From positions 32,001 through 96,000 of the forward strand of contig CAVPHD010000006.1 in the NCBI GenBank assembly GCA_963704165.1: 64,000 bases of DNA, in the 5' to 3' direction. This document shows, in pieces, positions 2,751-39,098 of the stretch (positions are counted from its first letter, which is position 1; every line of letters begins with the position of its first letter). The notes under the pieces were generated by a model. It saw only the letters and a program-made list of their open reading frames with translations. It searched no databases and was not told the origin of the DNA. A program made the translations under genes and the position numbers. Source of the stretch: an uncultured delta proteobacterium. GTDB taxonomy: Bacteria > Myxococcota_A > UBA9160 > SZUA-336.

Positions 2751-2915
2751 CCGAGTCTCCCTCCGACGCTCGACGCTGAGAACTCTTGAATCGCGTGGTG
2801 TGAATCGACCACGCGACCGAGGGCATCCTACCCGCACCGAGTCCGGCAGCACAACGAAATTGTGCAGTTCCGCCACAGAGAGACTGCGTCGTATGTGAAC
2901 CCGGAGAGGGCGGGA

Positions 2916-4396: not shown

Positions 4397-4493
4397 GCGC
4401 ACCTCCACCTGGGTTTCGTGGAATCCGCCTTCAATTCGCGCGCCAGCGAGCGCTGCGCTCCTCGAGCGGGCCGCGTGTATATTCCGCGCGGGC

Positions 4494-5794: not shown

Positions 5795-5816
5795 CCTCGG
5801 GGAGAGCGGGCGGCCG

Positions 5817-8185: not shown

Positions 8186-8198
8186 TTCCGTGTCCACC

Positions 8199-8967
8199 TC
8201 AGAAGCGATCGGGTCGGATCTCGGCGTCGTTCCCGCCGTCGATGTAGTGGATCGAGCCGTGGATCCAGCTCGCGCGGCGACCGAGCAGGAACGCCGCGAA
8301 CTCGGCGATCTCCTCGGGCTCGCCGATCCGCCCGAGCGGGATCTGAGAGCCTTTCGATCGCAGCGCCGGTGACGGGATCGGCCATGTCCCCCGCGAGCAG
8401 CGGCGTTCTCACCGGACCGGGCGCGACGGCGTTGAGCCGCACACCCGCGCGTCCCCAGTCGCCCGCTCGCCGACGCACGGCGCGCCCGAGTGCGTGCTTC
8501 GCGCCGAGGTACGCGACGATCGAGCTGTCGCCGGCGTCGGCGAGCCGGCGCGCCTCGGCCTCGTCCTGCGCGAGCAGCGCGACGACGTACGGATGCTCGT
8601 CGAGCCGGGCCATCTGCGCGGAGTTCGAGCAGACCACGAGCGCCGCGGGATCGGTGCCCGAGCGCAGCGCGGGAAGCAGGCGATCGAGAACCTCGACCGC
8701 CCCGAAGAAGTTCACCGAAGCGACGCGCGACGGCGGCCGCACGTGCGTCCCCACGCCGGCCGAGAGCACCAGCCGATCCAGGCACTGCTCACTTCGCGAG
8801 AGCACGGCCTCGACCGCCGCCTCCCGGCCATCGCGCGTCGAGAGATCCGCGATCACCTCGGCGTCCCGCAGATCGATCCCGATCACCCGCGCGCCATCCG
8901 CCTCGAGGCGGCGTCGGATCGCCGCGCCAATCCCCGACGCGCTGCCCGTGACCGCGGCGACGCTCAT
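8199..8967 (-). CDS. SDR oxidoreductase (3-alpha-hydroxysteroid dehydrogenase-like), frameshift near the 3' end
   Basis: 'VTGSASGIG', 'ADLST', YxxxK 'YLGAK', 'VRLNAVAPG' and terminal 'GSILYIDGG'. The start overlaps the asnS stop (TGATG). Confidence 0.85.
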
Positions 8968-10321
8968 CAGAACTCCGCGTACCCGGGAACGCGCGGAAAC
9001 GGAATGACGTCGCGGATGTTCGCCATTCCCGTCAGGTAGAGCACGAGCCGTTCGAAGCCCAGACCGAAGCCCGCGTGCGGCACCGATCCGAAGCGCCGCA
9101 GGTCGAGGTACCACTGGTACGGCGACTCGGGAAGGCCGCACTCCGCCAGGCGCGCGCGCAGCACATCGACCCGGTCCTCGCGCTGCGAGCCCCCGATGAT
9201 CTCGCCGACCTTCGGCACGAGCACGTCCATCGCCCGCACGGTCCGGTCGTCGTCGTTCAGGTACATGTAGAAGGCTTTGATCGTCTTCGGGTAGTCGGTG
9301 ACGATCACGGGGCGGCCGACGTGCGTCTCGGTCAGGTAGCGCTCGTGCTCGCTCGCGAGGTCGGCGCCCCACTTCACCGGAAACTCGAAGTCCTGGCCGG
9401 AACGCTTCGAGGATCGCGACCGCATCTCCGTAGGTCAGGTGCTCGAACGCGCTCTCGGCCACGTGCTCGAGCGTCGCGCGCAGTCCCTTCGAGATCCGCT
9501 CGTCGAAGAACGCGAGGTCCTCGGCCGACTCGTCGAGGACGGCCTTCACCACGTAGCGCAGGAACGACTGGGCGAGATCCATGTCGCCGCGCAGATCGCA
9601 GAAGGCCATCTCGGGCTCGATCATCCAGAACTCCGCGAGGTGGCGGCTGGTGTTCGAGTTCTCGGCGCGGAAGGTCGGTCCGAAGCGTGTAGACGTTCGA
9701 GAGCGCGAGCGCGCCGATCTCGGCCTCGAGCTGGCCCGAGACGGTCAGGAACGCGGGCCGGCCGAAGAACTCCGCCGTCGAACTCCGGCACGGTCACGCG
9801 GAACATCGAGCCCGCCCCCTCCGCGTCGCTCGTCGTGATGATCGGCGTGTGCAGCCAGACGAAGCCCCGCTCCTGGAAGAAGCGGTGCACGGCGCGCGCG
9901 GCGACGTTTCGCACGCGCAGCACCGCGCCGAGCGTGTTCGTGCGCGGGCGCAGGTGGGCGATCGTGCGCAGGAACTCGAAGCCGTGGCGCTTCTTCTGCA
10001 GCGGATAGTCGGGATCGGCCCAGCCGACGACCTCGAGCCGCGTGGCGCGAAGCTCGACGCGTCTGCCCCTTGCCCTGCGAGGGAACGAGCTCACCGTCGA
10101 CCACGACCGCGCAGCCGGTGTCGAGCTTCGACGATCTCCGCTTCGTAGTTCGCAAGCTCGGGACCGGCGACGACCTGCAGCCCCGCGAGGCTCGATCCGT
10201 CGGAGAGATCGAGGAACGAGACGCCCTTCGAGTGCCGCGCCGTGCGCAGCCAGCCGCGCACGCCGACCGATTCGCCCGCGCTTCCGCGCGCGAGCAGGTC
10301 CACGACCCGCGAGAACGCCAT
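8967..10321 (-). CDS. asnS: Asparagine--tRNA ligase, frameshifted
   Basis: '[16 protein letters not shown]', '[25 protein letters not shown]', 'MIEPEMAF', '[10 protein letters not shown]', '[10 protein letters not shown]', '[11 protein letters not shown]' and 'IRDVIPFPR'. Confidence 0.95.
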
Positions 10322-10411
10322 CCACCTCTCCCCGGAGCCGATCCGTTCGGGCCATCCTAGCGGAGCGAGATTGACAGCGAGAGTGCGTTTCCGTTTCATC
10401 CGCGCGCGCGC

Positions 10412-11847
10412 ATGTCAGACGACCCCGACGACGAGCGGCCGTTCGGAATCCTGGGCGGACGACGCTACCCGCGAGTGCCGATCGCGCGCGACGCGGCGAT
10501 CCTCCGCCGCGACCTCGCCTACGTCCACACCGACGCGATCGCCGCGAGCGTGATGGTCGGCACCGGCGAGACCTACATCGCCGCGTTCGCGCTCGCGCTC
10601 GGCCTCGGCGACATCGTCGCCGGCATCGTCGCGTCGGGGCCGCTGCTCGCCGGCGCGGTGCTCCAGCTGATCTCACCCTGGGCGGTTCGACGTCTCGGCT
10701 CGCACCGACGCTGGGTGGTGTGGACGGCCGGAGCTGCAGGCCGCGAGCTTCGTCGCCGCTGATCGTCGCCGCGCTGCTCGGACGGCTCAGCGCCATCGGC
10801 TTGCTCGCGATCGCGACCTTCTACTGGGCCACCGGCATGGCCGCGGGCCCGGCCTGGAACACCTGGGTCGGCACGATCGTTCCCCGCCGCCTGCGCGCGC
10901 GCTTCTTCGCGCGTCGCAGCCGCGTCGGCCAGGCGGCGCTGCTCGCGGGCCTGCTCGGCGGCGGCGCGATCCTGCACGTCTGCGAGTCGGCGGGAGAGAA
11001 GCTGATCGGCTTCGCGCTGCTCTTCGCGCTCGCGGGAGCTGGCGCGCGGCGTATCTCTGCCTGGCTGCTCGCGCACCAGAGCGAGCCGGACCCGCTCGTC
11101 GAACGCGTGAGCGGCGGCCTCGACCTCGCGCCCCCGCCCTCGACCCCCGGCAATCGCCGTCTGCTCGCGTACCTGCTCGCGGTGCAGACGAGCGTGCACA
11201 TCGCTGCGCCCTTCTTCACGCCCTACATGCTCGGCGAGGGCGCGCTCGGCCTCTCGTACGTCGGCTACATGACGCTGATCGCGGCGTCGTTCGTCTCGAA
11301 GATCTTCGCGCTGCCCTGGCTCGGGCACTTCTCGGCGCGGCACGGCGCACGGCGATTGCTGCGGCTCGCGGGCCTCTCGATCGTGCCGCTGCCCGCACTC
11401 TGGACGTTCTCGAACGACTTTTCGGTTCTGCTCGCGATCCAGCTCGTCAGCGGCGTCGCGTGGGGCGCGCACGAGCTCGCCACCTTCCTGCTCTTCTTCG
11501 ACGCGATCCGCCCGGAGGAGCGCACGCGTGTGCTCACCTGGTTCAACCTGGCGAGCGCGACGGCCATGGTCGTCGGAGCCGCGGCCGGCGGCTGGTTCCT
11601 GAGCTCGCAGGGCGCCGATCTGCCCGGCTACGCGACACTTTTCTGGATCAGCGCGGGAGCACGCGCGCTGACGCTGCCGCTGCTCGCGTGGATGCCGGAC
11701 ATCAAGATCTCGGCCCCGCCGCCGGCGATGCGCATTCTGGCGGCGCGTCCGTCCTCGGGCTCGATCGACCGGCCGGTGCTCTCCGACCGCGAGGACAGCC
11801 CGATCGACGGGCCGCCCGAGCCCGCCCCGCTCAGCGCGCCTCCGTAG
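10412..11847 (+). CDS. MFS transporter, frameshift near 10740
   Basis: Multiple TM segments; '[18 protein letters not shown]', 'PFFTPYML' and '[14 protein letters not shown]'. Confidence 0.75.
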
Positions 11848-13379
11848 CGCGGAGCCGCTCGAGCGCGCGCAGCGCGCGCTCGTCGCCGGGCAGGAGCGCG
11901 AGGTGTACGCGGTACTCCGCGATCGCGTCGTCTCTCCGGCCGGCCTGCTCGAGGGCGGACGCGAGGTAGAGATGGCGTTCGCCGTTGCCCCCGGTCGAGG
12001 GATCGATTCCCAACGCGAGCGTCAAGTGGTGGGCGGCTTCCTCCGCGCGGCCGACGCGAAGCAGCACGAAGCCGTAGTTCGCCTGCGCCCGCTCCCAGTT
12101 CGGCGCGATCGAGACCGCGCTCGCCAGCCGCGCGAGCGCCTCCACGTCGCGCCCGCGCGCGGCCAGCTCGATTCCCGCTTCGGTGTCGGCGAACCAGTTT
12201 CGCTCGGTGACGTCCACCGCGCGCTGCCAGAGCACGAGGTCGTCGATCCAGAAGGCCAGCTGCGCGCGGCTGGTCGCGGCGAACGCGACCAGCGCGGCGC
12301 AGACGGCGAGCCGTCGCGACGCGGAGAGCCAGCCTCGTGCCCGGCACCGCGAAGACCAGCGCGAGCCAGACACCGATCTGTGGCAGGTAGGTGTAGCGGT
12401 CGGCGGTCGATTGGAAGCCGACTTGCACGACGCCGAGCGTCGGCGCGAGCCCGATCGCGAAGAACGCCAGCCCCGAAGCGATGAACGGCATGCGCCTGCG
12501 GAGCGCGAACGCGATCGCCGCGAGCGCCAGGACCGACGCGCCCGAGGCGATCACCGTGCCGAGCGGCCAGGTTCCCGGGTGCGGGTACAGCACCGCGAGA
12601 TCGCTCGGCCAGAGCGCGCGGCCGAGCTGGCTCGCGAGGCCGACGAGCGCGTTCGAGATCCGGTCGATGAGCCCGAGGTCGGGCGAGATCGCGCCGACCT
12701 GCGCGCGGAGCGTGACGAGCGAGGAGCCGAGCGCGAGCGCTGCGTACGGGAGCTTCTCGATGATGCGCAGGCCCCGACGCAGCGGCCAGAAGTCGAAGAC
12801 GAAGAGCATCAACGGCAACGACACGAGCATCGGCTTCGCGAGCAGCCCGAGCGCCATGCAGGCGAGCGAGATCCCGTAGGCCGCGAACGAGCGGCTCCGG
12901 GCGAAGCGCGTCCACGCCAGCAGCGAGAGCAGCGTGAAGCCCGCGCAGAGCAGGTCCTTGCGTTCGGCGATCCAGGCCACCGACTCGACGCGCTGCGGGT
13001 GCAGTGCGAAGAGCGCGGCGATCGCCGCACTCCGGCCGGTCGAGCCGGTGAGTCCCGCGAGCCAGAGGAAGACCAGACACGCGTTCAGCGCGTGAAGAAG
13101 CGCGTTCTCGACGTGCGGTCCCGATGCGCCCGTCCCGAAGACCTCGACGTCCACCATGTGCGAGAGCCAGGTCAGCGGATGCCAGTTGCTGGCGTGAAAG
13201 CTCGTGAACGCCCAGCGCACGCTCGCGACGGTGAGGCCCGCCTGGACCTCGGGGTTCTCGGTCACGTACTGCTCGTCGTCGTAGAACAGGAACGGAAGAC
13301 CGCGAACCGGGGCGTAGACGACGAGCGTCGCGGCGACGAGCGCGGCACAGACAACGATCGAACCCGCCCGGCGGCTCAA
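11831..13379 (-). CDS. GT-C membrane glycosyltransferase with C-terminal TPRs (TMTC-like), frameshift near 12310
   Basis: 'YDDEQYVTENP', 'NWHPLTWLSHM', 'FALHPQRVESVAWIAERKD', 'ADRYTYLP', then TPR-like helices. Start codon is uncertain. Confidence 0.8.
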
Positions 13380-13455
13380 AGCGCGCCCCTCCCCGCAGAG
13401 ACGGCAGTCTACAACGCGGGCTATCATCCGCCGACTCGAGCCGAGGAGATCTGCG

Positions 13456-21961: not shown

Positions 21962-22810
21962 ATGGCTGACTCACCGCGAAGTGACGAGCGAATCATCGGC
22001 CCGGTGTCGGTAGAAGGCGCGGGAATCGCACCCGGTCGCGACCGGCTCGCGGGACGCCGGATCCTGGTCGTCGGCGCGGGCACGCAGGCCAGCCCCGAGC
22101 TCGACGCGCCGATCGGCAACGGGCGCGCGATCGCGCTGCTCGCCGCGCGGGAAGGCGCTTCGGTCGCGTGCGCGGACATCGATCCGAACGCGGCGAGAGA
22201 GACGCTCTCGCAGATCGAGAAGGAAGGGGGCCGCGGCTGCGTGATCGTCGGCGACGTCTCCGAACCTTCCGCCTGCGTTCGGATCGTCGCCGAGGCCGAG
22301 CACACGCTCGGCGGAGTCGACGGCTTGGTTCTGAACGTCGGCATCGCGGCGGGCGCACGGCTCGCCGGCACCGATGCCGAGGCCTGGGACCGGACCTTCG
22401 CGGTGAATCTGCGCGCGCACTTCCTGATCGCGCGCGAGCTCCTGCCCCGCCTGGCGCCCGGCGCCTCGATCGTCTTCATCAGCTCGATCGCCGCGCTCGG
22501 TCCGGGCTCGCGCCTGCCGTCGTACGACGCGTCGAAGGCCGGGCTCGCGGGGCTGATGCGCCACGTCGCGTTCGAGGGCGCGCGAAGCGGAGTCCGCGCG
22601 AACGTCGTACTCCCCGGACTGATCGACACGCCGCTCGGCCGCAGCGCGACGCGCGGCCGTCCGTCGCGCGCGCGCACGCCGGTTCCGCTCGGGCGCCAGG
22701 GGACGGGCTGGGAAGTCGCGCACGCCACGGTCTTCCTGCTCTCGGGCGAAGCGAGCTACATCACGGGCCAATCGCTCGTCGTGGACGGCGGACTCTCCGC
22801 GCTGACCTAG
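21962..22810 (+). CDS. SDR oxidoreductase
   Basis: 'VVGAG...IGNGRA', 'YDASK', 'NVVLPGLIDT' and 'YITGQSLVVDGG'. Confidence 0.9.
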   Translation: MADSPRSDERIIGPVSVEGAGIAPGRDRLAGRRILVVGAGTQASPELDAPIGNGRAIALLAAREGASVACADIDPNAARETLSQIEKEGGRGCVIVGDVSEPSACVRIVAEAEHTLGGVDGLVLNVGIAAGARLAGTDAEAWDRTFAVNLRAHFLIARELLPRLAPGASIVFISSIAALGPGSRLPSYDASKAGLAGLMRHVAFEGARSGVRANVVLPGLIDTPLGRSATRGRPSRARTPVPLGRQGTGWEVAHATVFLLSGEASYITGQSLVVDGGLSALT

Positions 22811-24282
22811 CGCCGAGACGGCGCGTTCATGCGCGCGAGCCGCGGGTCGAGCTCCGGCTGAAGCGTCGACGGACGCGATGCGGCCTCGATCTCGACGAGC
22901 GCGTCGTCGAGATCGCGTCCGAGCTGGTCGAGGTCCGGCGCGAGCTCCCAGTCGCCGATCAGTCCCCAGCAGAGCTTGCCGTCGTAGCTGAGCGCGGCGA
23001 CGCCAAGACCCTGGCGCGCGAAGAGCGGCAGCTGCGGATGGATCTCGAGAACGCGCGCGCCGAGCAGGTAGAGCGGCTGCTGCGGCCCCGGCACCGTCGA
23101 GACGATCAGGTTGTAGGGATGCAGCCGCGTCGCGAGATCGACCCCGAGGCGCGTCAATGCGACCGATCCCGTTGCGTCGGCGAGGTTGCTGAGCAGCTCG
23201 ATGCCACGGGCCGCGTCGGTCTGCCTCAGCCGCAGCTTCTGTTCACGGATCTGCCGGAAGCGCTCGCGCGGGTCGGGCTCGTCGATGGGCAGCGAAACGA
23301 AAAGGGCCGAGACGTGGTTCGCTTCGTCGATCTCGCCCGACGTCCCGCGCCGATTCACGGGGATGCACACCTTGTAGTCGAGCTTCGCGAGCGGCACGCC
23401 GCGTCCGATCAGGTAGCTGCGGATCGCTCCCGCGACGAGCGCGAGCACGACGTCATTCAGCGTTCCGTCGAGCCGGTTCTTCAGCGCCGTCAGCCGTGCG
23501 AGCTCGGTGGTGCGGAGCGCCGCGCGTCGGTGCGGGCCGATACGCTCGTTGAAGGGCGTCTCCGCGGGTGGGAGCAGCGCGCCCGAGAGCGACGTCGCGA
23601 CCGCGCGGCCGCTCTCGACGAGGCCCGTGAGCGCCGCCCCGGGATCCCGCGCGACGGCCGCGGCCGCCCCGAGCAACCGGATCGGAAGCGCCAATCGCCG
23701 AACGAGCTCGTCGATGCCGAGCCGGAACGTGCCCGGATGCGCGCGTGCCTCGAAGTCGAGAACGCGTGAACCCTCGTGGACCTCGGGCGAGGGCGAGAGC
23801 AGCTTCGCGAGCACCCCCATTCCGCCGACGGCATCGACCATGCAGTGGTGAAGTTTGGAGATCATCGCGAATCGGTCCCCGGTGAGGGAGTCGACGATCC
23901 ACGTCTCCCAGAGCGGTTTCTCGCGATCGAGGTGCTGGGAGAGGATCCGACCGACGAGCGCCTCGAGCTGGGCGTCGGTTCCCGGGGTGGGCAACGCGGT
24001 GTGGCGCACGTGGTAGCCGAGGTTGAAGTGTTCGTCGTCCACCCAGATCGGCCGGCGCGTGATCGGCGTCCACGCCAGACGCTCCCGGTGGTGCGGCATG
24101 TCGTCGAGCGTCGCCTCGATGTGCGCGGCGATGCGATCGAAGTCGAGCGCGCCGTCCGCGCGCGCGAGCTTCGCCCGCTCGAAGATCGAGACCGCCGCCA
24201 CGTGCATCGGCGTGGCCCGGTGCTCGAAGTGGAGGAACCAGCGGTCCTTGGAGGAAAGGGGCTCGTAGCCCGACGTTCGCAT
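22807..24282 (-). CDS. Wax ester synthase/diacylglycerol acyltransferase (WS/DGAT)
   Basis: 'PMHVAA', 'WVDDEHFNLGYHVR', 'LDREKPLWE', active-site-like 'HHCMVDA' (canonical HHxxxDG), 'TLNDVVLA' and 'VPGP'. Confidence 0.9.
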   Translation of the reverse strand: MRTSGYEPLSSKDRWFLHFEHRATPMHVAAVSIFERAKLARADGALDFDRIAAHIEATLDDMPHHRERLAWTPITRRPIWVDDEHFNLGYHVRHTALPTPGTDAQLEALVGRILSQHLDREKPLWETWIVDSLTGDRFAMISKLHHCMVDAVGGMGVLAKLLSPSPEVHEGSRVLDFEARAHPGTFRLGIDELVRRLALPIRLLGAAAAVARDPGAALTGLVESGRAVATSLSGALLPPAETPFNERIGPHRRAALRTTELARLTALKNRLDGTLNDVVLALVAGAIRSYLIGRGVPLAKLDYKVCIPVNRRGTSGEIDEANHVSALFVSLPIDEPDPRERFRQIREQKLRLRQTDAARGIELLSNLADATGSVALTRLGVDLATRLHPYNLIVSTVPGPQQPLYLLGARVLEIHPQLPLFARQGLGVAALSYDGKLCWGLIGDWELAPDLDQLGRDLDDALVEIEAASRPSTLQPELDPRLARMNAPSRR

Positions 24283-24294
24283 GCCCGACGGGCG

Positions 24295-25437
24295 TCAGCC
24301 GGCGGCGTTTGCGGCGCTCACCGGCGCGATGCCCAGATCGTTCATCATCATCGTGAACTTGCTGCGCGGGATCCGATCCTCGAATCCGGCACGGCGCAGA
24401 CGGTGGAAGTACTCCTGCATCTGCTTCACCTGCAGGTCACCGACGATCTTCACGCCGTCTGCGATCTGGGCGGGTTTCGTGCCCTTGCCCGCGAGCACGA
24501 TCATGCACTCGGTGAGCGCGGCGTCGAACTGGCTGATCGTGACCGACTCCCCCTCGTCGAGCGCCGAGTGAAGCTGTTCCTTGCGCTCCGGCGTATGGTC
24601 GATGGTCCACTTCAGGTGCTGCAGGCCGTACGAGACGTGACGTGCCTCGTCCTGCATCACGAGCTGGAACATGCGCTTGTCCACGGGCGTCGGCGAAATG
24701 AACTCGCTGAAGCGGAACATCGTCAGGATGTTGCCCTCGGCCAGGAGGTGCATGAACGCCGAAGCGTCGCTGTAGGTGTCGCCGTCGAGGATCGCCTTGA
24801 GGGAGTGCTCGGCCTGCGGCAGCGCCTCCATCAGACCGACGCCGCCCGCGAGCGCCCGCTTTCGGAACACTTCGGCGTGTCGCGCCTCGTCCATCGCTTG
24901 CGTGGCGATGAAGTGCTTCACCTCGTGGAACTGGTTGTTCATCCGCCAGAGCCACTTCGCCGGCAGGTCGGTCGCGATCATCTCGACCTCGGTGAAGAAC
25001 GTGCAGAGCTGCGCGAATGCGACCTCGAGCTCCTCGCTGCGCTCGTACTTGTCGAGATCGCCCCAGGGAATGTCCGTCGTCGCGTCCCACTGGCGCGAGA
25101 CCGCTTCCTCCGTGAACGACGCCACCTTGTACGCCCAGACGTCGGACTTGCGGTTCAGCTCCGGCTCGAGATCGGCCTGGACCTTCGGGTCGAAGGCCGC
25201 GCCCCGCGGCACCGCGCCCCGCGGCCCGCGCGGAACCTCGGGGAGCTCGTCGTAGCCGTAGCTGCCCTTGTTCACGTCGAGGTAGGTGAACCCGCGCTTC
25301 GGGTTCTCCTGCGAGAATCGCAGCTTCTCGGTGCCGGCCTTCATCCAGCCGAGATCGAGGTTGCCCTTGCGGATGTCGCGCATGCGCAACGCGAGGTCGG
25401 AGTTGCGGCTCCAGTCGATCGGTCCGTAGTAGCTCAT
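24295..25437 (-). CDS. Ferritin-like diiron carboxylate protein with an intact ligand set
   Basis: E...ExxH...E...ExxH pattern: 'TEVE', 'MDEARH', 'LAEG', 'QDEARH'. Confidence 0.85.
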   Translation of the reverse strand: MSYYGPIDWSRNSDLALRMRDIRKGNLDLGWMKAGTEKLRFSQENPKRGFTYLDVNKGSYGYDELPEVPRGPRGAVPRGAAFDPKVQADLEPELNRKSDVWAYKVASFTEEAVSRQWDATTDIPWGDLDKYERSEELEVAFAQLCTFFTEVEMIATDLPAKWLWRMNNQFHEVKHFIATQAMDEARHAEVFRKRALAGGVGLMEALPQAEHSLKAILDGDTYSDASAFMHLLAEGNILTMFRFSEFISPTPVDKRMFQLVMQDEARHVSYGLQHLKWTIDHTPERKEQLHSALDEGESVTISQFDAALTECMIVLAGKGTKPAQIADGVKIVGDLQVKQMQEYFHRLRRAGFEDRIPRSKFTMMMNDLGIAPVSAANAAG

Positions 25438-25456
25438 CGCTCTCCCCTTCCCCGGC

Positions 25457-26539
25457 TCAGCTGCGGAGCAGCCGCAGGAACTCCGGCAACGGGCTGCGCG
25501 AGCGGCGGTCGCCAAGACCCGCCGCCATGCAGCGCCTGAAGTATTCGTCGGTCGTCCGCTCGTAGAGGCCGGCGACGGGCTCGAATCCGCCCGAGATCAG
25601 CACGAGCGGCTCGATCATCTCGGGCGCGCCGAGCGCCCCGACGAGCGCGTTCTCGGACAGGTCGAGGTGGTTCGAGATCCGCTCGGCCTCGATCGGCCGC
25701 GCGTGCAGCAGGCCGCGGATGTGATCGACGCCGTAGGCGATGAAGCGCGTCGCATCCTGCGCGAGTCGAACGCCGAGGAACGAGTCCACCGCGTTGGTCG
25801 CGGTGTATTCGAGGTGACGTCCGATCGCCTGAATCCACGAGAAGAGCAGGAGGTTCATCGAGGCCGAGGCCTCGGGGTACGAGTCGGCGGTGAAGATCGA
25901 CTTCAGAAACGCACCGAACTCCGGACAATCGACCCCGAGCTGGCCGTCCCCCGCGAGCGCGCGTTTCCGGAACGCCTCGGAGATGCGCGCGGCGTCGTAC
26001 ATCTGCACGCACATCAGGTACTTGATCTCGTGGAACTCCTGGTTCATCCGGAACTCGTACGAAGCGGCCGTGTCGCAGGCGACGAATCCGGCCGAGACCA
26101 GATTCGTCGAGAGCTGGCGGATGGCGTGCGCGACCTGCTCGGAGTGACCCGGCTCGTCGAGCGCGGTCCAGGGCACGTCGTGCGCCGGCGCCCAGCGCCG
26201 GGACTTCGCCTCCTCGAAGAGGGTCGGTGCGACCTCGGCCCAGACATCGCTCTTTCGATTCAGGCGGTAGCCGAGCGACGGCAGGCCCGGGGGCAGGATC
26301 GCCCCGCGCGGCGCCATCGAGAAGTTGTGCCGCACGACCTCGGGGAGGTGATCCGGCGAGTACGCGCCGTGGTTGATGTCGGTGAGCGTCAGCCCCCGCG
26401 CGGGTTGGCTGGGCCGGAACGAGGCCCGCTCGCCGATCTTCTTCATCCACGACAGGTCGAGCTGGCCGGAGATCGTGCGGATCATCTTCGCGACGATCTC
26501 GGGATCCTGGCTGTAATCCTTGGGTGCGATGTAGGACAT
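25457..26539 (-). CDS. Ferritin-like paralog lacking metal ligands
   Basis: Collinear with 24295-25437 ('LNRKSDVWA', 'FHE.K', 'FRKRALAG'), but the ligand positions read 'SAG', 'DAARI', 'LLF' and 'DATRF'. Confidence 0.8.
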   Translation of the reverse strand: MSYIAPKDYSQDPEIVAKMIRTISGQLDLSWMKKIGERASFRPSQPARGLTLTDINHGAYSPDHLPEVVRHNFSMAPRGAILPPGLPSLGYRLNRKSDVWAEVAPTLFEEAKSRRWAPAHDVPWTALDEPGHSEQVAHAIRQLSTNLVSAGFVACDTAASYEFRMNQEFHEIKYLMCVQMYDAARISEAFRKRALAGDGQLGVDCPEFGAFLKSIFTADSYPEASASMNLLLFSWIQAIGRHLEYTATNAVDSFLGVRLAQDATRFIAYGVDHIRGLLHARPIEAERISNHLDLSENALVGALGAPEMIEPLVLISGGFEPVAGLYERTTDEYFRRCMAAGLGDRRSRSPLPEFLRLLRS

Positions 26540-26547
26540 CGGTTCTC

Positions 26548-26970
26548 CTACGAGGCCTTCACTTCGAGATACCGCGCCTGGTCGAAGAACTCCTGGATCG
26601 ATGCCATGAAGCGGTAGAACTTGTCGTGCCCTTCGGCGTCGGCGGTTTCGACCCGGAGCAGGTCGCCGACGTGCGAGAGCGTGTTCAGGGTGTGCTTCGC
26701 GTCCGCGCCGCCGTGCTCGACGATCGCCTCGATCATCTCCTTCCAGATCGCCGGCGAACCGCTGAGGACGAAGTCGAGCCGCGCGGGATCTCCGCCCTCC
26801 TGGACGTGGACACACTCGTAGACCTCGAACCCGATCGTGTAGAGGTCCTTCCCGACCCGAACGCCGAAGCTCGTGTCGCAGTAGCCGAGCTTCTCGAATC
26901 GGACCTTGTCTTCCTTCGTGCGCTGCTGGAGCGCCTGAAAGAACTCGAGCGATGGGAAACGGATCGCCAT
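26548..26970 (-). CDS. Small protein, probable SCP2 (sterol carrier)-like fold
   Basis: 140 aa with 'RFPSLEFFQAL' and 'DFVLSGSPAIWKEMI', resembling bacterial SCP2-like domains. GGAGGA RBS. The fold is inferred. Confidence 0.55.
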   Translation of the reverse strand: MAIRFPSLEFFQALQQRTKEDKVRFEKLGYCDTSFGVRVGKDLYTIGFEVYECVHVQEGGDPARLDFVLSGSPAIWKEMIEAIVEHGGADAKHTLNTLSHVGDLLRVETADAEGHDKFYRFMASIQEFFDQARYLEVKAS

Positions 26971-26989
26971 GACATCCTCCGCGCGGGTC

Positions 26990-27002
26990 TAGAACGATTT
27001 TA
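26990..27002 (-). promoter_or_regulatory. -10 element (TAAAAT) within an imperfect palindrome upstream of the diiron operon
   Basis: Minus strand reads TAAAATcGTTCTA, an AT-rich island about 25 nt before the ATG at 26970. Confidence 0.4.
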
Positions 27003-27074
27003 CGCCAGCAAGGTCCGTTCCCGCAGCCGACGTCGCACGGGCGGGATCTCCCGCGCGGCCTGCTGCAACCCGCC

Positions 27075-27845
27075 TCAGCTCCCGAAGGAGCCGTGGCGCC
27101 CGGCCCCTCGCGCGAATCGCGAAGCCCCCTCGAGCGTCTCGCCCGAGGCGATCACCTCGAGCCCGAGGCGCGTCTCGAGGCGAAGCGCATCGTCCTGCGA
27201 GAGCGGCCACTGCTGATAGGAGGAGAGCCGGTCGCTGCGCAGGCATCGCTGCGGGAACGCGGCGAGCTGGCGCGCGAGCTCGATCGCTTCCGGCAGGGCG
27301 CGGCCCGGATCGACCAGCCGGTTCGCGAGCCCCATCATGCGCGCCTCTTCACCCGAGACGCCGCGGCCGGTCAGGATCAGATCGAGCGCGTGGGAGTGGC
27401 CGATCATGCGGGCGAGGCGAATCGTTCCGCCGTCGATCAGCGGCACGCCCCAACGGCGGCAGAAGACGCCGAAGACCGCGTCGCGCGCGGCCACGCGCAG
27501 GTCGCACCAGATGGCGAGCTCGAGGCCGCCGGCGACCGCGTAGCCCTCGACCGCGGCGATCACCGGCTTGCCGAGCAGCATGCGCGACGGCCCCATCGGA
27601 CCGTCGCCGTCGGGGCTGACGCGATTCCCGCGCCCCTCCGAGACGCCCTTCAGATCGGCACCGGCGCAGAAGGTCCCCTTCGCTCCGGTGAGAACCGCCA
27701 CCGACGATGATTCGTCCGCGTCGAAGCGCCGGAACGCCTCGGCGAGCGCCGATGCGGTCGGACCGTCCACCGCGTTGCGCGCGGCCGGCCGGTCGATCGT
27801 CACGATCGCGACCGGCCCGTCGGTCTCGTAGCTGACTTCCGCCAT
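27075..27845 (-). CDS. Enoyl-CoA hydratase/crotonase family protein
   Basis: 'RNAVD', 'FCAGADL', 'KPVIAAVEGYAVAGGLELA' and 'RRWGVPLIDGGT'. Confidence 0.95.
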   Translation of the reverse strand: MAEVSYETDGPVAIVTIDRPAARNAVDGPTASALAEAFRRFDADESSSVAVLTGAKGTFCAGADLKGVSEGRGNRVSPDGDGPMGPSRMLLGKPVIAAVEGYAVAGGLELAIWCDLRVAARDAVFGVFCRRWGVPLIDGGTIRLARMIGHSHALDLILTGRGVSGEEARMMGLANRLVDPGRALPEAIELARQLAAFPQRCLRSDRLSSYQQWPLSQDDALRLETRLGLEVIASGETLEGASRFARGAGRHGSFGS

Positions 27846-27912
27846 CGTGCCCTCCGAAATCCGTCCAGCGACCGTACCACGCGCGCGCGTCTGCTAGCGT
27901 ACGCGCGCCGCC

Positions 27913-30291
27913 ATGGATGCCCCGATCCTGTCACTTCCTCCGACCGGGCTCGTCGCCATCCTGGTCTCGCTCACGTACCTCGCCCTCGCGGTCGTGCGCA
28001 TTCGGCCGGAATGGGTGGTGGACCACGCGCGCGCCGTGCTCGGCGTGCTCGCGGCGATCTCGCTCGTCGCCGCCGTCGCGCTCGTCGATCTGCGCACGCT
28101 CGAGCCGCGCGTCCGCCTCGACGCCTCCGAAGAGCCGCTGATGCTCCGCCACGATCCGGCGCGGGCGGTCTACGCCGAGGCCATCCGCACGTTCGGCAAC
28201 GACGACATCTACGTGATCGCGATGCTCACCGACGACGTCTTCACGGAGGCCGATCTCGGAGCGCTGCGTCGGATCAGCCACGCGGTCCTGAAGCTTCCAG
28301 GCGTGCGGCGCGCCGAGAGCCTGGTCGACATCCCGAGCTATCGCTGGGATCCGGAGAAGCTCTGGCTCGACGTCTCGGACTTCATCGACGACATCCCCTC
28401 CGAACCCGCGAGGCTCGTGGATCTGCGCCGGCGCGCGCTCGCCGATCCGATCTATCCGAAGCTGGTCGTGTCGCGCGACGGCTCGGCCGCCGCGATCAAC
28501 CTGTCCTTCCACGAGATCGGCGACCGGGCGTTCGTCGATCTCGGGCTCGACGACGCGATTCGCGCGATCGCGCAGGCGGAGACGGCCCCCGGCCGCGAGT
28601 TCCGTTTCGCGGGACGCCCCCACGTGAAGTCGCGCGCCGCGCTGATCATGGCGCGGGATCTCTCGCTCCTGATCCCGCTCGCGGTCCTCGTCGCGGCGTT
28701 GGTGGTCTTCCTGACGACGGGCTCCGTGCGCGGGGTGTTCTCGCCGCTGCTCGCGTGCCTGACGTCGGTGCTCTGGACGTTCGGCCTGCTCGCGTTCGCC
28801 GGGCTCTCGATCAACCTGATCACGATCGTGCTCGGCCCGATCCTGATCACGCTCGGCGGGCTGTACGGCGTGCACATCATCGCGCGCTGGGAGCAGGAAC
28901 GAGAGCACGTGGACAACGCGCGCGATGCCGCGCTCGCGACGCTCCGCGACGTCTTCGTTCCGGTCGTCCTGTCGGGCGTCACGACCAGTGCGGGATTCGC
29001 CGCGCTCGCTCCCGGTGGCATTCCGGGCATCGAGGAGCTCGGCACGTTCGCGCTCTTCGGAACGTCGGTGCTGACGCTGATCTCGATCACCGGGATCCCC
29101 GCCGCGCTCGCGCTGCTTCCGCACCGAAAGGGCGCGAGCGGGACGACGCGCTCCGGTGCGACCTTCGGACGAAGACTCGACGACGGGCTCGCCCGGCTCG
29201 CCGTCGCCTGCTGCACGCACGCGACTCCGATTCTGATCGCTTGGGGCGTGATGACGGCGATCGGGATCGCCGCGCTGCCGCGAATCGTGATCGACACCGA
29301 CTACCTGACCTACTTCGCCGAGAGCTCGCAGGTCCGACGCGACTTCGCGTCGGTCAACGAGCGTCTGATCGGACCGGTGCCGCTCTACGTCGAGCTGATC
29401 GGCGAGATCGAGGGCACGTTTCGGGAGCCCGAGAACCTGCGCCGGATCGAGGCGCTTCAACGCGAGATCGAGGCGCTTCCCGGAGTGGCCGCGACGATCT
29501 CGATGGTGGACCCGCTTCGGCTCCTGAATCGCGCGCTCGAGCGCGGCGATCCCGACGAGGAGCGCATCCCGGACACGCGCGAAGAGGTCAGCGATCTCGT
29601 CTTCATGGTTCCGAAGGCGGAGCTGCGCCGCTTCGCGAATTCGAACCACAGCGAAGCGAACGTGATCGTGCGCACGGGCGAGCTCGGCTCGCGCGCGGTG
29701 CGAACATTGGTCGGACGGATCGAGGACGTCGTCGCGCGGCTCGAGCTCGAGCCCGGGCTGCGTGTCGAGGTGACCGGCAATGCGGTCGTGCTGAACCGCA
29801 GCGCCGATTCGCTCTCGGGAAACCAGATCGCGAGCATCGCGCTCGCGAGCGCGACCATCTTCGCCCTCGTCTACGGGGTCTTCCGCTCGTTGCGCGTCAG
29901 CCTGCTGGTGATGATTCCGAACCTTGCGCCGGTGATCCTGTTCTTCGGCTTGCTCGGGCTCGGGCTCGCCCCGCTCTCTCTGCCGACGAGCATGATCGGA
30001 TGCGTCGTGCTCGGAGTCGCGGTGGACGACACGGTCCATGTGCTGGTGTCGTACCGGCGCATGCGCGAGCGGGGATCGTCGCCCGAGGACGCGGTGCTCG
30101 AGACCCTGCGTCGGGTCGGCCGGCCGGTCGTGATCTCCTCGCTGATGCTGGTCGCGGGGTTCCTGACGATCATGATCTCGGGCTTCGCGACGATCGTCGA
30201 GTTCGGCTACCTAACGGCGCTCACGATGGCGATCTGCCTCTGCGCCGATCTGATCATGCTGCCGGCGCTACTCGTTCGCGCTCGCGCGTAG
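27913..30291 (+). CDS. MMPL/RND-family lipid transporter
   Basis: Duplicated TM plus periplasmic architecture; 'SGVTTSAGFAAL', 'LGVAVDDTVH' and 'LIMLPALL'. Confidence 0.9.
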   Translation: MDAPILSLPPTGLVAILVSLTYLALAVVRIRPEWVVDHARAVLGVLAAISLVAAVALVDLRTLEPRVRLDASEEPLMLRHDPARAVYAEAIRTFGNDDIYVIAMLTDDVFTEADLGALRRISHAVLKLPGVRRAESLVDIPSYRWDPEKLWLDVSDFIDDIPSEPARLVDLRRRALADPIYPKLVVSRDGSAAAINLSFHEIGDRAFVDLGLDDAIRAIAQAETAPGREFRFAGRPHVKSRAALIMARDLSLLIPLAVLVAALVVFLTTGSVRGVFSPLLACLTSVLWTFGLLAFAGLSINLITIVLGPILITLGGLYGVHIIARWEQEREHVDNARDAALATLRDVFVPVVLSGVTTSAGFAALAPGGIPGIEELGTFALFGTSVLTLISITGIPAALALLPHRKGASGTTRSGATFGRRLDDGLARLAVACCTHATPILIAWGVMTAIGIAALPRIVIDTDYLTYFAESSQVRRDFASVNERLIGPVPLYVELIGEIEGTFREPENLRRIEALQREIEALPGVAATISMVDPLRLLNRALERGDPDEERIPDTREEVSDLVFMVPKAELRRFANSNHSEANVIVRTGELGSRAVRTLVGRIEDVVARLELEPGLRVEVTGNAVVLNRSADSLSGNQIASIALASATIFALVYGVFRSLRVSLLVMIPNLAPVILFFGLLGLGLAPLSLPTSMIGCVVLGVAVDDTVHVLVSYRRMRERGSSPEDAVLETLRRVGRPVVISSLMLVAGFLTIMISGFATIVEFGYLTALTMAICLCADLIMLPALLVRARA

Positions 30292-31125
30292 CGCGTCCAC
30301 CGATTTCAGGCGCTGGGGCGCGAAGATCGAATCCTCGATCACCGGGTTGTCGACCACACGATCGATCTCGAGCACGGACTTCGTCTTCTCGGACAGGTCG
30401 TACATCGTGCTCTCGAGCGGAATCCAGACGCCGGAGTACGGCTTGATCTTCCCGCGCGGAATCTCGAGCTGCTTCACTTCGACGCCCGCTTCGTCCCAGT
30501 GTCGGGTGCGCAGCGGGACGTCGTAGTCCTTGTCGACGTAGAGCAGGCTCCGAGCGTAGGCCGGGTCCGTCTCGGGTCGGTGGTTCACGTCCACGACCCA
30601 GACGGGGACGCCCTGGACCTCTTCGTCGGGAAGACGTTCGTAGGTCGCGTCGTCGATGTGACTGACCACGGCCAAGTCGTCGAGGCTGAAGTCACTGCCG
30701 AAGATCGACTCCTTCGCGGGCGCGATCCGCATCACACGCTCTCGCTTGCGCGAATAGTGGAACCCCTCGTCCTCGGTGCCCTTCCGCTCGATGAACAGGT
30801 ACGCGGTGTCGCGTTTGTCGTAGGGCTCGGTGAACTTCATGATCGTCTTCGAGATGACCGTGCCCTTGGGCGCGGACTCGGACGTGCGAAGATCCTTGAA
30901 ACGCGACCAGAACTTCAGGTTCTGGACGCTCCCGCCGGGATCGGTCGAAGACATCCGATGCTCGAAGTACGCCGTCTCGAGCTTGTTGTCGAGAACGCGT
31001 TGGTAGATCGCGCGCCCGTCGAGCCCGTCGGTCCCGGGCAAGGCATCGTCGGCGGCGCGCGACGTCGGAGCGACGAGCGGGAGAGACAGGAAGAGCAGGA
31101 GGATCCGGGCGTTCCGCACTCGCAT
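30268..31125 (-). CDS. LolA-like periplasmic protein (outer-membrane lipoprotein-sorting family)
   Basis: Signal peptide; 'MKFTEPYDKRDTAYL', 'RVMRI', 'SIFGSDFSLDDL' and 'IEDSIFAPQRL'. Confidence 0.8.
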   Translation of the reverse strand: MRVRNARILLLFLSLPLVAPTSRAADDALPGTDGLDGRAIYQRVLDNKLETAYFEHRMSSTDPGGSVQNLKFWSRFKDLRTSESAPKGTVISKTIMKFTEPYDKRDTAYLFIERKGTEDEGFHYSRKRERVMRIAPAKESIFGSDFSLDDLAVVSHIDDATYERLPDEEVQGVPVWVVDVNHRPETDPAYARSLLYVDKDYDVPLRTRHWDEAGVEVKQLEIPRGKIKPYSGVWIPLESTMYDLSEKTKSVLEIDRVVDNPVIEDSIFAPQRLKSVDALRASANE

Positions 31126-35825: not shown

Positions 35826-37151
35826 TCAGCGCCCCGCAGTCTTGAGCTTGGTGGTGTCGTAGTACTTCTTGCTCGCGGCGACGTCGAACTCCATCGCGTT
35901 CATGCCGTCGAACTGGCCGAGGTTCGACGCGCCGCTCTGCACGTTCACGATCATGACGGAGGTGCCGAGCAGCACGAAACGGCCCTGGTTCTCGGCGAGC
36001 CCCGTCGCCTCGCTCCACTTTCCGACGCCGCCGATCAGCTTGTACGGCTTGCCTGCGCGGTCGTACACGACGGCGAGGCCGGGCGCCATCGTCTCCTTGT
36101 CGTACCAGATCTTCTTGCGGCTGTAGGGGTGCCCCTTCTGGCGCGGGATGTCGTCGAGCTCGAAGCTCCGCCGCTTCTGCCAGCTCTCGCCGATCATCGG
36201 AAGCGCGCCGTAGGGATCGAAACGACACGCGCTCCACTCCTCGTTCGTCCCGAGCCGGACCATGCTCGTCGGGGAAATCGCATCGGTGACCCTCGGAAAG
36301 CAGGTGCGCGAGCTGTTCGACGCTGCGAGCTGGACGCTCTCGCCCCCGAACTCCCAGACGTGATCCCAGACGTAGCCGGAGAACAGGTAGAAGTCCTCGA
36401 GCGTGAACTCGGTGCCGAGCAGGGAGTCGCTCTTCTGCGTCGCGGCAATTCTGCGCACGCGCCGCAGCGCCGGGATGTACGCCCAGGTGTCGTCTTCCTG
36501 TCCGTTCCGGTAGCGGTAGAGCAGGAACATGGTTCCGCGCAGATCGAAGGGCGACTTGACGTCGAAGTACTCCGCCCATTCCGTGTTCGTTCCCGGCTCG
36601 AGCTCCGTCGTCTCGGGGAGGAGATCCGCGCGGCCGCTGAAATAGGTGCGCCGGTATTCGCCCTGCGAGATCCGCCAGGTCTCGCGACCCGCGTTGCGCA
36701 TGTTCGCGAATCCCCAGTGCGGAATGTTGAAGCCCGAGCCGCCCTGCCAGCGCTGATTCACGTTCCAGGCGAGCTTCAGCGCGAACTGCGGGTCGTCCGG
36801 CGTCAGGTCGCAGCGGTGTCCGGTCGCCTGCTTCGCCCATTCCGAGTACGGGAAGGGCTGTCCGGCGGTGTAGTTCGCGAGCCGTCGGTCGGCGTCGATC
36901 GATGCCTGACACGCGAACCGGACGGTCGCCTCGACGTACTTCGGGTGGGGCGGGTAGGACTCCGTCGCCGCGATTCGCATCTCGAGCTCCGCGAACGGCT
37001 CGATCGCGTAGCTGTAGAACTCCGCGGGCACGAGCTCCCGCACCTGCTCCCGGTTCGCGGTCGTGATCACGTCACCGGGCGCGACGTCGGCGGAGGCCGT
37101 TCGCGAAGCGAACGTGCACACGAGCAGAAGCGACACCGTCGTGCGTCTCAA
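35826..37151 (-). CDS. DUF1329-family periplasmic (LolA-fold) protein
   Basis: Signal peptide; 'PGDVITTAN', 'NYTAGQPFP', 'WAYIPALRRVRR' and 'HPYSRKKIWYDKET'. Confidence 0.82.
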   Translation of the reverse strand: MRRTTVSLLLVCTFASRTASADVAPGDVITTANREQVRELVPAEFYSYAIEPFAELEMRIAATESYPPHPKYVEATVRFACQASIDADRRLANYTAGQPFPYSEWAKQATGHRCDLTPDDPQFALKLAWNVNQRWQGGSGFNIPHWGFANMRNAGRETWRISQGEYRRTYFSGRADLLPETTELEPGTNTEWAEYFDVKSPFDLRGTMFLLYRYRNGQEDDTWAYIPALRRVRRIAATQKSDSLLGTEFTLEDFYLFSGYVWDHVWEFGGESVQLAASNSSRTCFPRVTDAISPTSMVRLGTNEEWSACRFDPYGALPMIGESWQKRRSFELDDIPRQKGHPYSRKKIWYDKETMAPGLAVVYDRAGKPYKLIGGVGKWSEATGLAENQGRFVLLGTSVMIVNVQSGASNLGQFDGMNAMEFDVAASKKYYDTTKLKTAGR

Positions 37152-39098
37152 GGCACCGCCGCCGCGGCTTTGGCCGGTGAAAACCAGATCGGCGAGGTCC
37201 AGGAGCGCTCCTGCACCGTCTTCGGGACGTTCGCGTCGCAGCACGGCTCGAATCCCTCCCTCAACGAGGACGGGTCGTCGCAGCGCACGCGCCCGGCGTT
37301 GCAGACGCGCGTCGTCCAGCGGCAGGTCGGGTTCTCGATCACGCGCGCGTACCAGACGGCGCGCTCTGCGGGATCGAAGTCGGGATCGGTCCAGACGGCG
37401 CAGAGCGCATCGGCGCCGGGACCGCGGGGCTCGCAGGTCTCGAGATCGACGCTCGCCGGGCTTTCCGGTTCGCCCGCGACGTCGTAGACCCGTTCGTGGG
37501 TCTCCCCATCCGCGTCGAGCCAGCCCTTCACGATCTGCAGCCGCTGCAGCTTCGTGCCCGGCCGCGCATCGGTTCCCGGATCTCGGAGCGCCGAAAGGAC
37601 GAATCGCGGCGAGCCGTTCGCGGGTGCGCGCGGAAGGTCCCCTCCCATCGGCACTCCGCCCGCGTATCCGCGCGCGGCGAGGTCCGGGCTCTCGCAGAGA
37701 TCCTCGGGATGGTCGAAGCCGCCGAAGAAGCGTACGACGTGGCGCGGGCCGCTCGTGCCGTACACTTCCTTGCGTCGCAGCGCCGAGAAGATCGCCTCGC
37801 GCGAGTTCTCCTCGGCCCAGACCACGGCGAGTCCGCCCGGGTTCAGATCCCACGCATCCGGCAGCCCGGGTGGGATCTCGTCCCTGGCGGGGTTTCCGGC
37901 GCCGCCGTGCCCCTTGTACGCGACGTCCTCTTCGACCGCACCGGACGCGCCGAGATGCGTGTCGGTGCTCGCGACGATGCCGAACTTGAACGGATTCACG
38001 CCGAGCTTCTCCTCCTGAACGAGTCCCTCGCGCAGGATGTGGCGGACGAACTGGCGTGGCACCGGCTTCTCGGCCAGGTACGGGACGTAGCGGCCACTGA
38101 AGTTTCCCATCTCGAGAGTCTCGAAGGAGCAGAGCTCGTCGGCGGTGTCGATGCCGCGCATGCACTCCGACGACGCCCTTGTGCTGCATCACCTCGACGA
38201 GCGGCTCGAGATCCGCGTTGAGACGCGCCTCCTCCGGAGTCATCGCGGAGCCGTCGAGGTGCAACGTCGAGAACATGCGTCCCGCGGACAGGTTCGAGTT
38301 GTGCGGGATCACGAGCGCGTCGCAACCGGTTCCGGCGTCGAGGCAGGTCTCTCGGAGCTTCCGCCAGAGCAGCGCCGGGGCGGGCGTGTCGATGAAGCTC
38401 GACGGAAGATCCGGCACGACCGAGTTCCGGAAGATCACGTTGCGGTGCAGGTTGTTCCCCGGCCCGGCCGCGCCCGTCCATTCGTAGCCGATCAGGGTGG
38501 TGAAGCGGCACTCCGCGCTGCGGTCGTTCGCGGCCTCCGCAGCTTCGATGATCTCGCGCCAGGGACCTCGCGCGGCCTCCCGGCAGCGCTCACCCCGCGC
38601 GCCGCAGAACTCGAAGCGCGTCGGCGGCTCCACCTCGTCGCCGCTCGAGGCGCGGTAGTTCATCGCGAAGAACGCGAGGCGCGGGTACTCGCGGTAGATC
38701 CGACAGATCCACGAGTCGTAACCGTCGAGCCCGGGCGTGCTGCAGATGTGTCCCTCGCCGAGCATCTCGGCGTGGTCGGTCACGGACGCGAAGTCGAGCG
38801 GACGCGCGAGCTGGAGCTCGCGCAGCGGTTTCCCGTCGCGATCGTAGGGCTGCACGCCGATCCGCTCGCCGCGCGCGAAGCGGTACGCGTCGGCGGGACG
38901 GTTCCGCGTGCCCTGCGTGCTCGCGTCGAGCGAGAGCACCGTGTGCACGTGCAGGTCGCCGAAGAGCGGTCTTCGCAGCGGGTCGCGGTCGGCGCAGACG
39001 CTAGGTGGATCGCCTCGCGATTCGCCGGCCTCGTCGGCTCGGAGCGGCGGGCTCGCGAACGCGACTGCGACCATCGCGATCGCGACGGCCCGTCTCAA
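37148..39098 (-). CDS. DUF3604-family secreted PHP-like metalloprotein, frameshift near 38170
   Basis: 'FGDLHVHTVLSLDA', 'PLDFASVTDHAE', 'GYEWT', 'NLHRNVIFR', 'IPHNSNLS', 'STDTH', 'YGTSGPR' and 'QERSWTSPIW'. Confidence 0.88.

Follow-up and report, generated by a model that had tools for sequence, protein, structure and literature searches.

Why should a bacterium keep, side by side, an intact gene for a ferritin-like metal protein and a full-length paralog stripped of every metal ligand, and what does a small carrier-like gene do next to them? The question is raised by a locus of an uncultured delta proteobacterium (Myxococcota_A; UBA9160; SZUA-336), in a stretch of 64,000 nucleotides (assembly GCA_963704165.1, contig CAVPHD010000006.1, positions 32,001 to 96,000) that is called the window here. 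Three core genes follow each other on the minus strand. The first encodes an SCP2-fold small protein of 140 aa (26548-26970), the proposed carrier or effector; the second, the ligand-less ferritin-like paralog P0002 of 360 aa (25457-26539), the proposed beta subunit; and the third, the intact ferritin-like dimetal-carboxylate protein P0003 of 380 aa (24295-25437), the proposed catalytic alpha subunit. In the present study, this trio was found to be real, conserved and undescribed, and we give an even chance to its being an alpha/beta dimetal oxygenase, fed by the SCP2-fold protein, which hydroxylates a putative lipophilic substrate. Ferritin-like dimetal oxygenases carry out difficult oxidations at C-H and N, and what R2lox, the nearest family, acts on is still debated.

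Results

The two middle proteins are paralogs from end to end (36% identity over 362 columns, E 2e-72), and their profiles match with a probability of 100% over 357 columns. The segments LNRKSDVWA, FHE.K and FRKRALAG are common to both, as a sequence-only reading of this DNA had stated. P0003 carries E152, D183-E184-A-R-H187, E234 and D263-E264-A-R-H267, of which E152, E184, H187, E234, E264 and H267 are the six predicted metal ligands (encoded within 24637-24984, minus strand); they are invariant in alignment A1. At the same places P0002 reads G151, D182-A-A-R-I186, F233 and D262-A-T-R-F266, the ligands being replaced by G151, A183, I186, F233, A263 and F266. It retains the motif Asp residues D182 and D262, the Arg residues including R265, and the R2-type Trp W116. 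One paralog thus has all six ligands and the other none, yet is full length, as had been proposed. Among non-redundant members (<95% identical; 50 intact and 60 degenerate copies), all six ligands were present in 49/50 intact copies and five in the remaining one, and not a single ligand was kept in any of the 60 degenerate copies, a contrast that is not due to chance. The copy with five ligands (L059:8820-9956, genome G019) has AAARH as its first motif, possibly an assembly error or early degeneration.

The ligand-less gene does not behave as a pseudogene. The ratio of nonsynonymous to synonymous substitution rates (dN/dS), obtained by Nei-Gojobori counting from 15 pairs that were selected from 19 loci of this kind, had a median of 0.19 for the dead copy (maximum 0.39), 0.10 for the intact copy and 0.22 for the SCP2 gene; with this value and with its conserved positions, the pseudogene reading was rejected. 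Over the 60 dead copies, 50 positions conserved at ≥95% agree with conserved residues of the intact copy, including arm positions and second-shell Asp, Arg and Trp, and 39 further positions, C177 among them, are conserved without an intact-copy match. The N-terminal arm (41-100) of the dead copy has a conservation of 0.80 against 0.69 and 0.67 in the helix bundle, whereas the intact copy shows the reverse (arm 0.72, bundle 0.88). An arm which is poorly ordered in the monomer model and most conserved in the dead copy is as expected of a partner-binding arm. Judged from the alignments, the conservation pattern of the dead copy would fit a retained dimer interface.

The pairing is constant across genomes. 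In a survey of 121 genomes of the class, with full-length dead copies taken at E<=1e-160 and adjacency counted by hand, 43 dead copies were found in 35 genomes. Each of them adjoins a partner-class copy (43/43), and 40/43 adjoin an SCP2 gene, one of these being split in two. Of the three exceptions, G012 has its SCP2 gene on a different contig, G022:C238 has no adjoining one, and at G234 the contig probably breaks off. The trio of active protein, dead paralog and SCP2-like protein is therefore conserved, and the dead member is under purifying selection. Two gene orders occur, SCP2-dead-intact as in this locus and SCP2-intact-dead, the latter preceded by a TetR gene in 5 of the genome loci retrieved, one of them from this same genome (L047, G000:C2:55653-58371: TetR, SCP2, intact, dead). 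The gene patterns of the genome loci recur in 79 metagenome loci, taken from the best 80 of 442 confirmed stretches, and the dead and intact clades split alike, with 22+6 rows each. Relatives' titles are mostly Myxococcota. In a survey of the phylum at E<=1e-30, 32/251 genomes matched, 18 in the class of the window and 14 in other classes, these 14 carrying a distant single gene. The family, with up to three subtypes per genome, is present in about one third of this Myxococcota class. Beyond the phylum the pair occurs sporadically, at one locus with the title Pseudomonadales and another with the title Spirochaetaceae; in the class of the former, 2/300 genomes match. Among viral contigs, 53 pattern matches gave 0 confirmed relatives, and a plasmid search returned 7 distant matches, all <60% identical and none covering 80%.

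The conserved unit is three genes (SCP2-fold, ligand-less paralog, intact paralog), not four. The fourth gene of the system proposed earlier encodes a wax ester synthase/diacylglycerol acyltransferase (WS/DGAT) of 491 aa (22807-24282, minus strand; TIGR02946 383.5 bits against a cut-off of 310), in which the HHxxxDG motif reads HHxxxDA. The four genes (22807-26970) are indeed co-oriented, with the lengths and the gaps of 8, 19 and 12 bp given before; all have an ATG start, no internal stops and a third-position GC content of 0.89-0.92. Purine-rich GGAG-type sequences precede the three core genes and none precedes the WS/DGAT gene, and promoter and terminator scans of 22500-28100 in the window gave 0 sites. 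Flanks were counted, after removal of listed duplicates, in 73 other pair loci, of which 52 had at least 1.5 kb of downstream room. WS/DGAT comes directly next in 1/52 (L091, 92% identical); in three loci it is found at a distance of 3-3.6 kb, and G007, whose intact copy is 91% identical, lacks it. It was rejected as a member of the unit and is a local passenger. Upstream, at 104 bp, lies a crotonase-family protein of 256 aa (27075-27845, minus strand; NF006108 above cut-off). It does flank the trio here, as noted earlier, but an ortholog (>=80%) stands directly upstream in only 5/52 other loci with room, a link confined to five close relatives, and it too was rejected as a member.

The 140-aa protein was said to be SCP2-like, and its fold supports this despite the lack of a match to the Pfam SCP2 family (PF02036). 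Its AlphaFold model (predicted local distance difference test score, pLDDT, 94) matches the SCP2 structure 2cx7 in Foldseek (E 1.7e-5, template modelling score 0.68/0.73), and the top ten matches are all SCP2 or UbiJ-SCP2 domains. In an Atlas neighbour cluster, 13% of the members carry SCP2. Three of the SCP2 loci L170-L173, L175 and L176 adjoin lipid-catabolic genes (MaoC/SDR, ChsH2-OB/thiolase and crotonase/CoA-transferase).

For the ferritin-like proteins, structural comparisons used the model of P0003 (pLDDT 77, predicted template modelling score 0.74; arm 1-100 poorly ordered, in blocks of pLDDT 42-76), the fold of the dead paralog being taken from homology. In this model the features of R2-type ferritin-like dimetal-carboxylate proteins are predicted (four-helix bundle, E/ExxH/E/ExxH), which places P0003, as modelled, in the R2-type ferritin-like superfamily. 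Around the predicted site the hydrophobic residues are mostly conserved, with F176, F191, L238, F241 and F257 invariant in 76/76 intact members. By VIA, VlmB came first (Z 25.1, root-mean-square deviation 2.9 Å, 258 aligned, about 3 above the next), followed by R2lox (21.8), ADO (21.7), R2 (21.6), MmoX (20.7), phenol hydroxylase chain C (19.8), MmoY (19.6), ToMO beta (19.5), acyl-ACP desaturases (16.5-16.9), PaaAC (16.0), BoxB (14.6), AurF (14.3), and Dps, bacterioferritin and Mn-catalase (11-12). The chains of bacterial multicomponent monooxygenases (BMMs) were missing from the 50-row Foldseek-based VIA list and present in the wide search; they align from residue 36-45, into the arm, a low-confidence part of the model.

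No Pfam or NCBIfam family reaches its cut-off for P0002 or P0003. P0003 has weak matches to DUF455, R2, AurF and R2lox and P0002 nothing relevant, and the dead subunit is invisible to Pfam (any family, 0/27 members) and annotated 'hypothetical'. Searches with hidden Markov models (HMMs) bear out the earlier suggestion that neither paralog falls within a characterised family, and no description of this one was found in a literature search that did not cover subscription journals and supplements.

R2lox has the same E/ExxH/E/ExxH ligand set, and NF006200 matches weakly in 76/76 intact members. In R2lox the first ligand is Glu and a Phe takes the place of the radical Tyr, and P0003 has E152 and F191 (76/76) at these positions. 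It differs in its 16-17% identity, in about 70 more N-terminal residues, and in its dedicated ligand-less paralog, for which the same literature search found no R2lox report. Membership was rejected on the PRK08326 model (29.9 bits against a cut-off of 194; best member E 2.9e-9) and on the absent cross-link Tyr (third ligand minus 5), position 229 being Met in 37/50 and Leu in 13/50; the Val-side register of the Tyr-Val cross-link is ambiguous (I154 or A155).

In BMMs (MmoX/MmoY, TouA/TouE, DmpN/DmpL), catalytic and ligand-less subunits share one fold, and the sequence-only reading had drawn this analogy. It holds for the architecture and not for the descent: by sequence the nearest are R2lox, AurF-like proteins and VlmB. 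The likeness to MmoX and MmoY (280-297 aligned) is one of overall, superfamily fold and is not family-specific. Identity is 6-13%, P0003 has 380 aa against about 500 for BMM alpha, and the twin, still 36% identical to its partner here, would derive from inside its own family. BMM membership was rejected, since PF02332 matched 0/76 intact and 0/27 dead members and an own-genome search had no match at the locus. Thr-Asn at i+4/i+5 after the third ligand, a BMM mark (numbering from MmoX), is absent, P0003 having L238 (76/76), T239 and M240. No MmoB/DmpM-type gene and no FAD/[2Fe-2S] reductase was found among the flanking genes scanned; a genome-wide PF02406 search gave no match, but its positive control gave none either.

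PaaA/PaaC joins an active and an inactive ferritin-like subunit, and a small third protein belongs to the system. Membership was rejected (PF05138 0/76; TIGR02158 weak in 4/76, best E 0.003); the third protein here is SCP2-fold and not PaaB, and PaaD/E are lacking. Genuine paaA and paaC lie on contig C9 of this genome, and against both pair profiles PaaA scores negative bits and PaaC is unlisted. R2 of class I ribonucleotide reductase (RNR) was rejected because of F191 in place of the radical Tyr, PF00268 at 18.5 bits against 33.6, and no nrdA among the neighbours scanned. AurF/CmlI was rejected on PF11583 (15.5 bits against 29.6), its low Z and V260 (74/76), at the position of the third His of AurF, four residues before the last Glu. 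Acyl-ACP desaturase, BoxB and ADO were rejected, their family HMMs matching none of the 76 members.

Intact genes also occur alone. Single intact-gene loci without the twin keep the SCP2 gene, and one such subfamily consists of the intact gene, the SCP2 gene and a dedicated 2[4Fe-4S] ferredoxin, which is found in 9/121 genomes and adjoins the SCP2 gene in 9/9. One copy, with TetR upstream, lies in this genome (L048, G000:C3:196241-198271). That no ferredoxin or reductase adjoins the pair is right for the window and for the pair loci, and does not extend to this subfamily. These loci echo haloarchaeal R2lox genes, which are reported to cluster with ferredoxin and sterol-carrier genes and to be induced by hexadecane (PMC9314684, citing Kumar 2020). 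G021 and L163 also have ferredoxin-type neighbours. In G021, a separately derived degenerate/intact pair (L062:6540-11228), in which the degenerate copy keeps part of the metal site, has a Fer4-domain gene on one side and an SCP2 gene on the other.

More distant relatives were also seen. A single-gene subfamily at L067-L077 and L088, from other Myxococcota classes and one genome of the class of G271, forms a conserved trio without SCP2, together with acyl-CoA-dehydrogenase-like and phosphonate-binding-like genes; some members have a weak N-terminal TusA-like domain, and this trio may be a separate system. On the Rhodococcus opacus plasmid NZ_CP082159.1, from a cultured strain, a distant ferritin-like gene lies between molybdopterin oxidoreductase and fdxA (L065:5309-9360). 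Tandem pairs of AurF-Pfam-like ferritin-like genes occur at G000:C11:228395-230496 and L084:4312-6293, and 8 matches to the AurF model were counted in this genome.

When 1.84 billion representatives were searched with a profile, 197 matches were obtained at E<=1e-30. Among the best 150, 85 span all six positions, 46 of them intact, 35 with at most three ligands and 4 with four or five. Names were looked up for 20 clusters and include Acidimicrobiia, Actinomycetota, Chloroflexota and Dehalococcoidia, and the Chloroflexota and Dehalococcoidia names also cover ligand-less proteins. All trees were made in quick search mode. On the main tree, of 79 rows, four changes are required to explain the ligand-less state, and each is imposed by branches with ≥95% support in the Shimodaira-Hasegawa-like approximate likelihood ratio test (SH-aLRT); the dead clade of the window groups as sister of the window's intact clade (99), and the earliest branch of this dead clade is P0255, which keeps E184/H187, one ExxH. 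After removal of eight ligand or near-ligand columns, the approximately unbiased (AU) test on 30 of the 79 rows (12 dead, 18 intact), chosen after seeing the tree, rejected a single origin of the ligand-less state (p-AU 0.00037), and the basal place of P0255 was no longer resolved. Dead-beside-intact adjacency was checked in the clade of the window and in G021, and was seen in both. From these trees, ligand-less paralogs appear to have arisen at least three times in this family, and the pair of the window probably arose by its own duplication inside it.

Discussion

We propose that the three core genes encode one soluble oxygen-activating enzyme. P0003 would bind two metals (Fe/Fe or Mn/Fe), the reduced site binding O2, and P0002 would be a structural beta subunit completing an R2-type pseudo-symmetric alpha/beta dimer. 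The SCP2-fold protein would deliver a water-insoluble substrate, perhaps a long-chain aliphatic or lipid, to be hydroxylated, and electrons may come in trans from a ferredoxin encoded elsewhere, such as the one beside the single-gene relative on C3 of this genome (G000:C3:197993-198271). The dimer would derive from a homodimeric single-gene ancestor by duplication, followed by loss of one metal site. The alpha/beta reading is drawn from the ligand counts (49/50 against 0/60), the strict adjacency, the two gene orders and the parallel clade splits, and the oxygenase reading from the structure matches, which are O2-activating dimetal enzymes. The conserved hydrophobic residues around the site, the single-gene loci with SCP2 and ferredoxin, and the haloarchaeal R2lox clusters also speak for the proposal, as does the depletion of alkanes reported for GkR2loxI lysate (PMC10867098). 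Precedents for an active chain with a non-catalytic paralog are yeast Rnr2/Rnr4, AibH2/AibH1, the alpha/beta subunits of BMMs and PaaA/PaaC. We hold it very probable that the intact protein is a dimetal O2-activating enzyme, as predicted, and a stable alpha/beta heteromer is likely. A lipophilic substrate is mildly favoured, and hydroxylation, rather than another oxidation, is a prediction on which we stand evenly divided. By analogy, the trio may work as does an R2lox module with SCP2 and ferredoxin, to which a silent subunit like that of BMMs or like Rnr4 has been added.

Several results weigh against this proposal. The SCP2 gene is not obligatory, being absent beside 3/43 dead copies, and at L170-L173, L175 and L176 it has no ferritin-like neighbour. 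No conserved reductase or ferredoxin was found among the flanking genes scanned at pair loci, and the ferredoxin query had no match in the pair-bearing genomes G001, G009, G012, G019, G020 and G022. The other flanks vary without pattern, and because they are not conserved they indicate no substrate. The model of the intact protein is of middling quality, and its best structural match, VlmB, oxidises nitrogen. The depletion of alkanes by GkR2loxI was seen in crude lysate, weakly controlled and with no product shown, and E202A/H205A lost little activity (PMC10867098).

The VlmB match leads to one alternative, namely that the pair is an alpha/beta N-oxygenase of VlmB/AurF type, oxidising an amine, hydrazine or other N-bearing lipophilic compound. 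VlmB (6d9f, 8wvr; 'protein 60' of Kitasatospora setae) is top by profile (E 3.2e-6), Foldseek and VIA, the AurF Pfam matches weakly in 57/76 intact members, and VlmB is reported to convert hydrazine to azoxy compounds with aliphatic chains (PMC11705231). However, identity to VlmB is just 19-20%, the alignment begins at residue 103 and leaves the arm unmatched, and the passages on VlmB that were consulted mention no twin or SCP2 partner. VlmO, VlmA, VlmH or natural-product genes are not conserved nearby, so that VlmB membership was rejected, and AurF itself is distant in fold, the position of its extra His being V260 here. We regard this explanation as unlikely.

It is equally conceivable, though improbable, that the intact protein acts as a homodimer, to which the twin would bind just transiently, as a chaperone for metal loading, a regulator or a ligand-binding protein. 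Many relatives have a single intact gene with SCP2 and no twin, so catalysis needs no twin in principle. In yeast, the active chain Rnr2 and its close paralog Rnr4, which has no diiron ligands, form an R2-fold heterodimer, and Rnr4 may act as a chaperone (PMC3824934). This is our nearest analogue in degree of divergence; Rnr2, however, is a radical generator for RNR, whereas the present pair has no radical Tyr and no NrdA neighbour, and its twin has lost all six ligands. Against this alternative stand the 1:1 adjacency in 43/43 and the 50 shared conserved positions, with the arm and second-shell residues, which would fit a retained interface. A silent partner of a catalytic subunit is known from another fold: AibH1H2 of Rhodococcus wratislaviensis, fed by ferredoxin, hydroxylates a C-H bond with a diiron catalytic subunit and an essential non-catalytic paralog, 28% identical (PMC7782822), but it is an unrelated TIM-barrel amidohydrolase and AibH1 has retained a Zn site.

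The lipid reading given earlier from sequence alone, here taken as a soluble desaturase of acyl chains or a deformylase of aldehydes for lipid remodelling, feeding wax-ester or triacylglycerol synthesis, is also quite improbable in our view. The SCP2 partner, the ADO match and the 6d9f entry title, which gives aldehyde-deformylating activity, speak for it, as do the WS/DGAT and crotonase genes here and the acyl-CoA dehydrogenases, crotonases or WS/DGAT near some single-gene relatives; WS/DGAT, however, directly follows one pair locus elsewhere, desaturases rank lower in Z, and desaturase/decarbonylase families match 0/76 members. Finally, an O2- or peroxide-scavenging or metal-buffering pair which converts no substrate would agree with the lack, at pair loci, of any conserved pathway gene or electron donor, but it is very improbable, as the R2-type fold (Z >20) outranks Dps, bacterioferritin and Mn-catalase, and as this reading would account neither for the conservation of hydrophobic pocket positions nor for the SCP2 partner.

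Beyond the alpha/beta oxygenase of this locus, we tentatively put forward, with less than even confidence, an undescribed multi-phylum family of SCP2-fed dimetal monooxygenases, in which a homodimer would have become an alpha/beta heterodimer at least three times and half-site intermediates (P0255) would still be living. If true, abundant uncultured Myxococcota, Dehalococcoidia and Acidimicrobiia would harbour a new class of soluble oxygenases for lipids or hydrocarbons, and the family would serve as a replicated natural model for the origin of the BMM alpha/beta hydroxylase, with SCP2 as the small effector subunit. Where one metal site is lost repeatedly and step by step, the passage from homodimer to heterodimer that has been proposed for BMMs can be put to a direct test. 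A three-gene soluble system with a built-in carrier also lends itself to simple co-expression, and a ligand co-purifying in the SCP2 protein could name the substrate.

Other features of the window

Next to the crotonase gene lies an MMPL/RND exporter with a LolA-like gene (27913-31125), and further on a DUF1329/DUF3604 cluster (35829-38161); both are a possible lipid transport context. Many short gene pieces are found at 2750-13400 (NnrS, flavin oxidoreductase and class II tRNA synthetase fragments), which suggests frameshift errors of the assembly there, the four studied genes being intact. A LanC-like protein (42392-43492) directly follows an Mrp antiporter cluster.

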